In this document: positions 496-11,254 of the stretch, in pieces
Layout: the number at the start of each line of letters is the position of its first letter
Position numbering within the stretch: the stretch's first letter is position 1
Translations under genes and position numbers: made by a program
Assembly (NCBI GenBank): GCA_030698495.1
Contig: JAUYKA010000017.1
Location: 1,319-65,318, forward strand
Origin: a bacterium
GTDB taxonomy: Bacteria; Patescibacteriota; Andersenbacteria; UBA10190
Length of the DNA stretch: 64,000 nucleotides
Reading direction: 5' to 3'
The notes under the pieces: model-generated
What the model saw: only the letters and a program-made list of their open reading frames with translations
Database searches by the model: none
Told to the model about the DNA's origin: nothing

Positions 496-711
496 AAATT
501 TTTGGCGGGTGGCGCTCGTAGGCGCCCAACCATACCCATTTGCTTTGGGGGCCGTCTCAAGACTTGCCGGCCCGGTCCCCGCCTAATTTCGCCGCAGCGA
601 AAATTTGGCGGGGCGGCAAGGCTTGAGTCGAGCGCCGCCCGCCGCTGGGGCGGGCAAGTGTGCCGCCCGAAGTAAATGGGTATGGTTGGGACTCACCCGC
701 CAGAAATTTTT
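496..711 (+). repeat. Family-1 structured element, copy 1 (candidate structured ncRNA). Core 526-689, extra outer pairing 496-512 with 694-711
   Basis: Conserved core CCGTCT / P2 CTCAAGACTTGCCG pairs CGGCAAGGCTTGAG / P3 CCCCGCC pairs GGCGGGG with an apical hairpin / AGTCGAGCGCC / P4 GCCCGCC-GCTG-GGCGGGC / AAGTGTG. Outer stem CCAACCATACCCATTT pairs AAATGGGTATGGTTGG. Confidence 0.7.
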
Positions 712-717
712 ATCACT

Positions 718-1317
718 TTATTCGCCTCCCTCAATCGGGTACGGCTTCTCCACCCACATCAAAAAATGAATATGCCCTTTACTCACCACTACCTTCCCGC
801 CCTCATCAGAAAAAACTTTTTCCAGTACTGGACGATCTACCCGACTGGCCGCCCGCCACAGCCGCTTAAGCGGTCCCACTACATATTTTTGATTATCCCC
901 GGTTACGCCAATCAAACCACCCGGCCTCACTACCCTTAACATTTCCCGTATCGCCCGCGGTACGTCATCTACATAATGCAAAACATGCGCCGCGATAACT
1001 ATATCAAAAGACGCTCGGTCAAACGGCAGCTGCTTTATATCCGCCTCTCTCACCTTCAGCCTCTGTCCGTAATCACTGCGCAAATCTTCAAACGATGTTG
1101 TCGCTCGCGCATCGGCATCAACCGCCGTCAGCTCCACTTGCGGATAGGCTTCTAAAATACGGCGCGTCGTATAACCTCGTCCCGCTCCCACTTCCAGCAC
1201 TTCCCCCCGAAACGGACTGGGGCAACGCTTCAAAAAAACAGACATATAGCGCCGCGCGTGCCACCGATGCATCCAGGTGCTATGCCACCATCTTTCAAAA
1301 ACAGTTAATTGACTCAT
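718..1317 (-). CDS. Class I SAM-dependent methyltransferase
   Basis: VLEVGAGRGY glycine-rich SAM motif; DIVIAAHVLHYV and VRPGGLIG post-motifs. Confidence 0.75.
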   Translation of the reverse strand: MSQLTVFERWWHSTWMHRWHARRYMSVFLKRCPSPFRGEVLEVGAGRGYTTRRILEAYPQVELTAVDADARATTSFEDLRSDYGQRLKVREADIKQLPFDRASFDIVIAAHVLHYVDDVPRAIREMLRVVRPGGLIGVTGDNQKYVVGPLKRLWRAASRVDRPVLEKVFSDEGGKVVVSKGHIHFLMWVEKPYPIEGGE

Positions 1318-1469
1318 GCCCTAACAATACCACACGCCATACAGCTAAAACCACAATCTTAGAAAAAATCCTTAACTGAACCCGAATAACAAACAAGATA
1401 AAATAACAAAGAAACCCTTCGGCCAAGAGACTCAAGACCAAAGAAGTTCCTTTTATTCAATTGTACTAA

Positions 1470-1700
1470 CTACATCGACGGACTACCGACAGTCTGTTTA
1501 TCCCCGGCAAACATTACCAAGGCCACTATCACCGACAAAACACCAACCACAATTTGGATCCAGGGTGTTCCGCCCGTCAAGTTAGCCAAGCCCGTATAAA
1601 CAGCCGGAATTAGATGGACTAATCCACCTACCAGAAGTAAAACAGCCGCCCATAATTGCAAACTTTTGCTTTTTGCCATCTCGCTGCTCACCTCCTTCAC
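1470..1700 (-). CDS. Small membrane protein (2 TM), hypothetical
   Basis: 76 aa ORF with two hydrophobic helices. Confidence 0.4.
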   Translation of the reverse strand: MKEVSSEMAKSKSLQLWAAVLLLVGGLVHLIPAVYTGLANLTGGTPWIQIVVGVLSVIVALVMFAGDKQTVGSPSM

Positions 1701-1911
1701 ACTCTTTTATAGTCAAGTTACCTCTTTATTATAGTACACTCCTACCTAAAAAGAAACGCAGGTATTACCACTTACATAATAAACGGCTCAAGCGTACGCT
1801 TGAGCCGTTTATCTTTACCCTTTTTAACCCCGCAACTGCGTTGGGCGCTCATGCTCGCGCATACCGTGAGCCGAAGTTTAGGAATCTAGTGTATTTAGGA
1901 AGATTTGGCTG

Positions 1912-2075
1912 GCAGGTGATGCTCGCGGCTCCTGTGCATGAGCGACCGTCTCAAGGCTTGCCGGCCAGGTCTCCGCTCGCAAGCGGAGCGGCAAGCCCTT
2001 GAGTCGAGCGCCGCCCGCCGCTGGGGCGGGCAAGTGTGTCGCTCATGTATAGGTGCCGCGAAAAGCATCACCTGC
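1912..2075 (+). repeat. Family-1 structured element, copy 2, 55 nt downstream of the nrdJ stop
   Basis: Same core. Outer stem GCAGGTGATGCT...TGCATGAGCGAC pairs GTCGCTCATGTA...AGCATCACCTGC, with two G-T wobbles readable only on the + strand. Confidence 0.7.
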
Positions 2076-2129
2076 TGGAGCAAAAACACGTCAATAGATT
2101 GCCCGGTCAAGCCGGGCAATGACATTTTA

Positions 2130-10333: not shown

Positions 10334-10371
10334 AAAACCCAGTATATCCGCATATAAACAATAACAGCAAA

Positions 10372-10662
10372 TTATTCAACGGTCGCAAAAATACTCTTCG
10401 GATTACGCGGCAACTCCTGTGTCGGAAATGCCGGCACTTGCGCCTCAATATCCGAACGCGCACCCGCTACTCCCGGCACCGGCGATACCGATGGCTGGGG
10501 ACTCACAACCAAAAGCCTTTGCGCCGTTTCAACTGCCAAACTTCGCAAACCCTTCACCAAATCGAAATCCATTAAGGCTATCCCGGTCACTACCGCCGAT
10601 ATCAAAAAAAGGATTACCAACAAACCTCTGCTTGTCCGCCACTCGATCATATTTATATCCAA
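10372..10662 (-). CDS. Hypothetical membrane-anchored protein
   Basis: 96 aa ORF with one TM segment. Confidence 0.35.
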   Translation of the reverse strand: MDINMIEWRTSRGLLVILFLISAVVTGIALMDFDLVKGLRSLAVETAQRLLVVSPQPSVSPVPGVAGARSDIEAQVPAFPTQELPRNPKSIFATVE

Positions 10663-10818
10663 ACAATGAATTAACCATTACCTATACCATTAACTACAAT
10701 ATACGTCAAATGAAATTAAGAACATAACATTAAATCCCGCTGGCTAAAATAAATCTATGAGTGTATAATTTATAAAACGATTAGCTTATACACCACTATC
10801 TTCAAGGAGGTGATTTCC

Positions 10819-10971
10819 GTGAACGACGACACCATGAACCCAACCGAAGAGCCAATGACACCGGAAACTCCAATGGCTCCGGAAACACCTGCTGAAGCCA
10901 TGCCAGAAGCTCCGGCAGAACCCATGACACCGGAAACTCCGGACGAAGAAGGAGAAACCCCGACTGCGTAA
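10819..10971 (+). CDS. Small acidic Pro/Thr/Glu/Met-repeat protein (GTG start), hypothetical
   Basis: Strong SD AAGGAGGTGA 5 nt before the GTG; about 50 aa with PMTPETP-like repeats; followed by a textbook intrinsic terminator. Confidence 0.45.
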   Translation: MNDDTMNPTEEPMTPETPMAPETPAEAMPEAPAEPMTPETPDEEGETPTA

Positions 10972-10986
10972 TTGATTCTTCTGTAG

Positions 10987-11024
10987 AAAAAAATTACCCC
11001 GCATAATGCGGGGTAATTTTTTAT
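10987..11024 (+). terminator. Rho-independent terminator (bidirectional-capable)
   Basis: ATTACCCCGC-ATAA-TGCGGGGTAAT perfect 10-bp stem followed by TTTTTTAT and preceded by an A-run. Confidence 0.75.
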
Positions 11025-11086
11025 CCGCCTCCTCTCCTCCCCCAACATTAACGGTGTAGAAACATTTATACACACAATCACCGCGA

Positions 11087-11254
11087 CTGCGAGCACGGTA
11101 TCTGCTCTTGCCGGCCGTCTGAAAGACTGCCGGCATGGTCCCCGCCTATTTTTTGCGAAGCAAAAATATTGGCGGGGCGGCAGGCTTTCAGTCGACGCCG
11201 CCCGCCCGCTGGGGCGGGCAAGTGTGCCGCCAAGAGCAGATACCGTGCTCGCAG
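11087..11254 (+). repeat. Family-1 structured element, copy 4, 67 nt downstream of the YgjP-like gene stop
   Basis: Perfect 24-bp outer stem CTGCGAGCACGGTATCTGCTCTTG pairs CAAGAGCAGATACCGTGCTCGCAG. P2 is CTGAAAGACTGCCG pairing CGGCAGGCTTTCAG. The P3 apical hairpin resembles copy 1. Confidence 0.7.

Follow-up and report, generated by a model that had tools for sequence, protein, structure and literature searches.

The stretch analysed here, called the window throughout, is 64,000 nucleotides of contig JAUYKA010000017.1 (assembly GCA_030698495.1) from a member of Candidatus Andersenbacteria in the candidate phyla radiation. It carries four copies, c1 to c4, of an intergenic element that folds into a branched structure with a three-way junction at its centre. 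The element is real and statistically well supported, and it lies outside Rfam. It is a new family within a broad known kind, that of structured intergenic repeats or candidate noncoding RNAs, represented by four copies in one uncultivated species. The four copies are most likely diverged paralogues of a lineage-restricted structured element. As an explanation we tentatively put forward a lineage-restricted family of structured + strand RNAs, which is weighed below against a mobile repeat and several further alternatives.

Four copies of one branched element

The extents of the copies were taken from their folds, and a covariance model, R1, was built from the four copies. P1 denotes the closing stem, P2 and P3 the two inner arms.

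495–710, + strand: c1; P1 of 46 bp with an extra small hairpin in its 5′ arm; conserved core 552–662; P2b arm extended; −145 kcal/mol, z −9.8; 135.6 bits under R1.
1904–2085, + strand: c2; P1 of 41 bp; conserved core 1946–2038; P2b arm short; −127 kcal/mol, z −9.7; 134.4 bits.
8466–8632, + strand: c3; P1 of 33 bp; conserved core 8499–8593, the minimal version of the core; −124 kcal/mol, z −9.8; 149.2 bits.
11087–11254, + strand: c4; P1 of 28 bp; conserved core 11115–11226; P2b arm extended; −124 kcal/mol, z −13.3; 128.5 bits.

Repeat finding, two motif or pattern searches and the covariance model agree on exactly four members, all on the + strand, which is what an earlier reading of this DNA by eye (the sequence-only reading) had claimed. 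Elsewhere in the 64-kb window and in 10 kb that continue it to the right, about 75 kb in total, no fifth copy was found. The reverse strand of the copies scores 21–31 bits under R1, compared with 128–149 bits for the + strand. The copies are 168–216 nt long and have a GC content of 63–69%, compared with 49% for the window. A high GC content relative to a genome of moderate GC is usual for structured RNAs. The local clustering that had been pointed out also holds, with p ~0.01–0.02 by our own calculation for four points falling inside 10.8 kb of 64–75 kb.

Each copy, folded separately, adopts the same three-way junction at −122 to −145 kcal/mol. The z-scores range from −9.7 to −13.3, and 200 shuffled sequences include none that folds as well as the native copy. 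P1 is interrupted one to three times per copy. Its pairing is kept while its sequence varies, and it encloses the conserved core. P2 starts with CG-U-CU, and a 14-bp helix leads to a conserved 7-nt bulge, GCNNGGU. The 3′ strand of P2 comes back via AG-U-CG, which results in a conserved U·U mismatch. The arm is capped by a hairpin of variable length, C(C/U)CCGC(C/U)...(G/A)GCGG(G/A)G; c2 and c3 have a short tip, and the tip of c1 and c4 bears a further hairpin. P3 reads GCGC-N-GCCCGCC-GCUG(G)-GGCGGGC-AA-GUGU, and both of its G·U pairs are held in the GCGC/GUGU base. The P3 hairpin is nearly identical in sequence in c1, c2 and c4, and c3 differs from these by a compensatory pair.

The alignment of the copies supports this fold. 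Standard pairs occupy 97.8% of cells in the model alignment, compared with about 40% if the partners are slid by 1–3 columns. Compensatory changes on both sides are found at 14 of the 45 modelled pairs, and no column shuffle out of 500 matches the observed values. Between copies, identity is 69–85% in the core and only 34–65% in the P1 arms. With pairing nearly perfect at these identities, it must have been kept while the sequences drifted. The unpaired nucleotides are conserved although the surrounding helices covary. The copies also resemble one another in patches: c1 and c2 have an identical 37-nt P3 block, c1 and c4 have the P2b extension in common, c3 and c4 share P1, and c2 and c3 share a 3′ extension. 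This mosaic similarity, as read from the sequences, suggests exchange between copies.

By-eye inspection revealed no covarying pseudoknot partner for the 7-nt bulge, and no trans targets for the P1 arms were found elsewhere in the window. Reading frames are not conserved between the copies, which speaks against protein coding. A search of the whole window with Rfam 15 at gathering thresholds gave no match, and relaxing the limit to E values up to 10 over positions 400–11400 gave only hairpin matches at chance level.

The strand probably under selection

The sequence-only reading had noted that the wobble pairs in P1 of c2 and c3 can form on the + strand only. We confirm this and can extend it. 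P1 contains 4, 4, 2 and 0 G·U pairs in c1 to c4, ten in total, and not a single A·C 1×1 mismatch, which corresponds to a one-sided p of ~0.001. P3 adds two G·U pairs, of which one is shared by c1–c4 and the other by c1–c3, c4 having a gap at that column. With RNA parameters, the + strand is more stable than the minus strand by 15–17 kcal/mol in c1–c3 and by 2 kcal/mol in c4.

The direction of this asymmetry can be compared with the mutation pressure in the region. The GC skew of the + strand is −0.16 to −0.33 in every 2-kb bin of the window and persists where genes lie on the + strand. Since this skew is negative and most genes are encoded on the minus strand, the minus strand has the composition of a leading strand. 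The transition bias behind such a skew should yield A·C mismatches on the + strand and not G·U pairs. From the 10 to 0 excess of G·U pairs against this pressure, we infer selection on the fold of the + strand. The sequence evidence thus points to the single-stranded + strand, which is antisense to the genes on either side, as the functional form under selection. As an observation in its own right, the skew is unusually strong and uniform, and the whole window lies within one replichore of extreme strand asymmetry.

Genomic position and neighbouring hairpins

Each copy follows the stop codon of a minus-strand gene. The distance is about 7 nt for c1 (methyltransferase, stop at 718), 45 nt for c2 (ribonucleotide reductase, 2130), 54 nt for c3 (sigma-70 factor, 8686) and 67 nt for c4 (YgjP-like gene, 11321). 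The genes around the copies are ordinary ones and encode the methyltransferase, the ribonucleotide reductase of class II type, glycosidases, the sigma-70 factor, elongation factor P (EF-P) and the YgjP-like hydrolase; the remaining genes of the window are housekeeping genes. The uniform arrangement emphasized in the sequence-only reading, with all four copies antisense behind a minus-strand stop, is real. It is, though, largely the default of the region: almost all genes from 1 to 43.7 kb lie on the minus strand, and because the gene array runs in one direction, any intergenic insertion here would come to lie 3′ of a minus-strand gene. Identical orientation in four of four copies has a p of only 0.125.

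On the side away from the stop codon, a strong separate hairpin stands 52–93 nt beyond each copy. Two smaller hairpins lie on the other side of c2 and c3.

385–420, minus strand: terminator-like hairpin with a T-run on the minus side, 74 nt beyond c1.
1781–1810, no strand assigned: perfect palindrome, T-rich on both sides as read from the sequence, 93 nt from c2; probably a two-way terminator.
8377–8413, + strand: 17-bp hairpin, 52 nt upstream of c3, whose T-run is confined to the + strand; weak Rfam matches to terminator-like parts of other families.
10987–11022, no strand assigned: two-way terminator hairpin (A-run, stem, T-run) behind the small + strand gene at 10819–10971, 64 nt upstream of c4.
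2099–2119, + strand: small conserved hairpin with c2, 10 nt before the ribonucleotide reductase stop.
8652–8672, + strand: small conserved hairpin with c3, 13 nt before the sigma-factor stop.

From this arrangement of stop codons and hairpins, c1, c2 and c4 look like parts of the 3′ untranslated regions (3′ UTRs) of minus-strand genes, in antisense orientation to them. The small hairpin has only two matches in the window, one beside c2 and one beside c3. It shows two compensatory pair changes with a conserved loop, reads TTsCCCGrYTTGAyCGGGsAA on the minus strand and has no clear U-tract. It may belong to the element or may represent the terminators of these two genes.

We also considered the element itself as an intrinsic terminator and rejected this, in line with the earlier view that it is not a simple terminator: no site in a terminator scan has P1 as its stem, and neither strand of c2–c4 carries a U-tract. 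The statement that a U-tract is missing from either strand of all copies does not extend to c1, in which AAAUUUUUAU lies at the end of the outer stem, within the terminal part of P1. The scan also returned a 22-nt minus-strand site (11100–11079) that overlaps the outer edge of c4. The canonical terminators are separate and stand 52–93 nt from the copies.

The small gene upstream of c4 (10819–10971, + strand) encodes a proline- and glutamate-rich product of 50 aa and runs against the gene array; the two-way terminator follows it.

Distribution in relatives and sequence collections

The sigma factor of the host is identical to one in the metagenome-assembled genome (MAG) GCA_034372665.1. In relatives whose sigma factor is 71–75% identical, the syntenic loci keep the gene order. 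No element was found at the syntenic loci of the relatives L116–L119 and L130–L134, and the five sets of syntenic spacers that were examined (L116, L118, L130, L133 and L134) contain none. L134 likewise has the small proline-rich gene, its terminator and the YgjP stop. There, terminator and stop are separated by about 55 nt, compared with about 300 nt in the window; the spacer is thus longer by about 245 nt with c4, and c4 is absent from this syntenic site. The homologue of the 10819–10971 gene sits at the same place in L134, whereas L116 and L118 have an unrelated small cysteine-rich protein there.

L116 (Andersenbacteria MAG GCA_040900375.1) carries a different structured element in the spacer between YgjP and efp, at 8440–8600 (minus strand), which is the corresponding strand. 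It folds with −86 kcal/mol and z −6.9. Its apical hairpin, CUCCACCC-UGAA-GGGUGGAG, resembles P2b of c3, and it scores only 8.2 bits under R1. A small hairpin related to it recurs behind the reductase gene, at 19078–19102 of L116. We treat homology as unproven: the L116 element could be distantly related, or it could be an analogue peculiar to its own lineage.

Larger collections were scanned for exact matches to blocks taken from the four copies, a procedure that could miss diverged relatives; the source species is missing from both of the large collections. The pattern CCGTCT..AGTCGA..GGCAAGTGTG gave 9 hits in GTDB species genomes, and GCCGGCNNGGTC..AGTCGA..AAGTGTG gave 9 hits in JGI metagenomes. 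Three exact patterns were searched in IMG/VR. All of these scans returned chance matches only. Running R1 on all fetched loci gave nothing significant, the best score being 20.6 bits in what is apparently coding sequence. A blastn search with c3 against phages and plasmids gave no match. Outside the source species the element is therefore to be described as not found, which differs from shown to be absent.

Contigs of this species, both from the MAG and from Logan assemblies, end in or beside copies, as is expected of a repeat. The public MAG annotation places a 169-residue protein without a Pfam family over c4 (window 10770–11309, minus strand; 8265–8774 in L001), on the strand opposite to the small proline-rich gene. 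We are almost certain that this open reading frame (ORF) is spurious and a product of the GC-rich element. Further copies were also sought through spurious ORFs lying over them: a concatenated six-frame protein query gave only a swamp of low-complexity matches, a two-sequence profile of the minus frame found nothing in protein databases, and a profile of the + frame searched against 1.8 billion representatives gave one repeat-like match attributable to chance.

A structured + strand RNA as the tentative explanation

Covariation, conserved unpaired nucleotides in junction and bulge, wobble pairs that run against mutation pressure and the character of the copies as GC-rich islands together favour a single-stranded form of the + strand. 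We regard a lineage-restricted family of structured + strand RNAs as a possible explanation and the one that we prefer, tentatively. Such an RNA would be made convergently, antisense to the flanking genes. The conserved nucleotides of junction and bulge may provide a recognition surface for a shared partner, be it a protein or a tertiary contact. The long and nearly perfect P1 would give stability or serve in processing, as a stem of a type that double-strand-specific RNases cut. The family would have grown by local duplication with patchy gene conversion, and the duplicates may have landed in the only permissive space of a compact, one-directional gene array.

Two groups of known RNAs are comparable. 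The noncoding RNA motifs of the Rfam type that are recognized as GC-rich islands resemble the element in high GC content, covariation, conserved junction nucleotides, strand-specific G·U pairs and several paralogues per genome. They differ in that the search revealed neither a promoter nor a terminator belonging to the element, its P1 is far longer than is typical of riboswitches or small RNAs, and it is known from one species only. The processing stems of rRNA precursors, Y RNA and 6S RNA likewise combine a long end-to-end stem, free in sequence and kept in pairing, with a conserved module that it surrounds. Here the element differs by matching neither Y RNA, 6S RNA nor other families, and the window contains no Ro/TROVE gene.

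Several points weigh against the interpretation as a + strand RNA. With DNA parameters the + strand is favoured as well, by 0.3–9 kcal/mol. G·T pairs also stabilise single-stranded DNA, and RNA and DNA are therefore not told apart by the strand evidence. The version that is transcribed in c1, c2 and c4 is probably the minus-sense one, as part of a 3′ UTR. Before it reached c2, c3 or c4, any + strand transcription from upstream would have to pass a hairpin whose T-run is on the + strand, and in the 100 nt upstream of the four copies no sigma-70-like + strand promoter is predicted. The analysis identified no partner gene for the element. The evidence comes from four copies in one species and has thus no independent phylogenetic support. 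Of the earlier proposal of an independently transcribed + strand RNA, selection on the + strand is what our analysis sustains; given the missing promoter in the 100 nt upstream, the small RNA itself is an inferred entity.

A more specific proposal, which we consider doubtful, would be an undescribed structured RNA class of an Andersenbacteria branch that is released from the long processing stem and acts through the three-way junction and the 7-nt bulge, either as a protein scaffold or as a catalytic or ligand-binding RNA; or else a new mobile repeat whose ends are set by pairing and not by sequence.

Alternative explanations

The closest competitor is a selfish, non-autonomous repeat that spreads via a folded + strand intermediate, of single-stranded DNA or of RNA, which an enzyme encoded elsewhere in the genome would recognise. 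We rate it as rather unlikely, and as a reading to be taken seriously. Copies would survive only where they are harmless, between stop codon and terminator, and only folding copies would propagate. This agrees with the syntenic spacers of the five examined relatives, which are free of the element, and with the ~245 nt that c4 adds relative to L134. The foreign composition of the copies (63–69% GC in a 49% GC window), their clustering, the patches shared by neighbouring or subfamily pairs, the missing promoter and the breaking of assemblies at copies fit a mobile repeat too. The ends, however, are the most variable part of the element, and terminal inverted repeats with a constant sequence, duplicated target sites and a motif common to the flanks are all missing. 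Neither the 64 kb nor the gene calls of the following 10 kb include a transposase, integrase or reverse transcriptase, and phage, plasmid or viral collections contain no match. The core has diverged by 15–30% with almost no broken pairs, which implies either very recent insertion from several diverged masters or selection at each locus. A miniature inverted-repeat transposable element (MITE) was considered as a candidate and rejected: the outer stem differs in sequence between copies, and no direct repeat flanks any of them.

An improbable alternative is a cis-acting 3′-UTR element that is read in the minus sense, comparable to repetitive extragenic palindromes (REP) or enterobacterial repetitive intergenic consensus (ERIC) sequences. 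A large hairpin of this sort would block 3′-to-5′ exonucleases, aid termination or offer a site for double-strand RNases. In the minus sense a stop codon lies 7–67 nt ahead of every copy, c1, c2 and c4 are followed by a hairpin that resembles a terminator and has its T-run on the minus side, and the minus-sense RNA still folds with −108 to −129 kcal/mol. The minus sense, however, converts the ten G·U pairs of P1 and the two of P3 to C·A, and no pair is wobble-only in this sense. Selection acting on the mRNA form would predict the reverse asymmetry. A mere hairpin barrier would also leave unexplained why four unrelated genes share a conserved junction and bulge. REP sequences have 20–40 nt and ERIC sequences about 127 nt, each conserved in sequence throughout. 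Like these and the bacterial interspersed mosaic elements (BIMEs) built from REPs, the element is multi-copy, GC-rich, hairpin-forming and non-coding, is lodged in spacers between stop and terminator and can break assemblies. The transcribed spacer between stop and terminator typical of such repeats is seen for c1, c2 and c4, whereas the hairpin at c3 has its T-run on the + side only. Action in the sense of the host mRNA is not seen, the wobble pairs of P1 being antisense by 10 to 0. The element further differs in that its outer 28–46 bp vary freely and what has been conserved is the branched core, including unpaired nucleotides; the strand under selection lies opposite to the mRNAs, there is no sequence similarity, and no transposase of the RAYT type was seen.

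It is very unlikely that the element is a self-cleaving ribozyme, whether from a new class or from a divergent one. The idea stems from GCCGGCAUGGUCCC in c4, which is identical over 14 nt (18/19 if extended) to the 5′ part of the genomic ribozyme of hepatitis delta virus (HDV), the HDV sequence having been confirmed in papers, and the conserved unpaired nucleotides at junction and bulge would suit a ribozyme. The match, GCCGGCATGGTCCC at 11128–11146 in c4 and at 8512–8530 in c3, corresponds to the start of the HDV ribozyme and reaches 18/19 with the following GCCT; it covers the P1-J1/2-P2-P3 segment. The nested double pseudoknot of HDV-like ribozymes, by contrast, cannot be drawn here. The equivalent of P3, a 3-bp helix in HDV-like ribozymes, has 7–8 bp and a loop of 3–4 nt (a tetraloop), so P1.1 cannot form; the 3′ partner for P2 (GGAGACC or GGGGACC) is absent; and the helix runs on 5′ of the would-be cleavage site. 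No covariance model of an Rfam ribozyme family matches, even at E values up to 10. The HDV match is probably a coincidence or local convergence.

The suggestion of the sequence-only reading that the element could be a known single-stranded DNA recombination site, an integron attC site or an end of the IS200/IS605 type, is largely refuted, and we assign it the lowest probability of all. The resemblance lies in imperfect palindromes that fold on one strand with wobble pairs, in one orientation, at the 3′ ends of co-oriented genes. An attC site should have paired RYYYAAC/GTTRRRY core sites; these are absent from both strands of all four copies, including 30 nt on either side of the element, and c1 alone has one unpaired RYYYAAC. 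The conservation pattern, with ends 34–65% and core 69–85% identical, is the inverse of the conserved ends and variable centre of attC, and 168–216 nt exceeds the ~57–141 nt of attC sites. The neighbouring genes for ribonucleotide reductase, rpoD, efp and YgjP are core genes that are syntenic in relatives without the element, and not cassettes. Among the window's ORFs of 80 aa or more, none encodes an integrase domain, and the window likewise contains no Y1 transposase, TnpB or reverse transcriptase. With regard to IS200/IS605, the element forms one branched hairpin and not two end hairpins, and the left flanks GGGAA, GAAGA, TACAC and CGCGA show no fixed target of 4–5 nt. The better-folding + strand is the C-rich leading-strand template and not the lagging-strand template that such systems use, as judged from GC skew and gene orientation.

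Significance

Bacteria of the candidate phyla radiation have tiny genomes and few known regulators, and to our knowledge very few noncoding RNAs have been described from them. A pairing of 28–46 bp and a branched core that are kept over 15–30% divergence and against mutation bias constitute, for an analysis based on sequence, strong evidence for a functional single-stranded form. As an RNA, this form would extend the inventory of a little-explored group by a new family. Should the element be a mobile repeat, the variability of its ends would imply a mode of recognition unlike that of MITEs, REPs and attC sites. On the practical side, the copies fragment assemblies of this species and cause spurious ORF calls, as illustrated by the 169-residue example over c4.

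Additional observations

Upstream of c1, the spacer at 449–473 shares an exact 17-nt match, AATTACGCTTCCTCCCC, with the coding sequence of the YgjP-like gene near c4 (11718–11735; blastn-short E 2e-4 within the window). C/T-rich tracts lie 25–60 nt upstream of both c1 and c4. AT-rich, periodic repeats of the GGAAATTG type, about 58 nt long and 78–84% identical, are found in promoter-side spacers at 420–449 (minus strand), 12056–12113, 15540–15597 and 18617–18674, and may represent curved DNA or a regulator binding array. A second repeat family is located at 22010–22145, 56877–56935 and 56976–57070. Its GC-rich hairpin core, GCCCGCCGWAGCCTTKKGCGAAGGCTGGGC, stands between short tandem repeats of the AT-rich CAGTAAATA type, which form long inverted arms.

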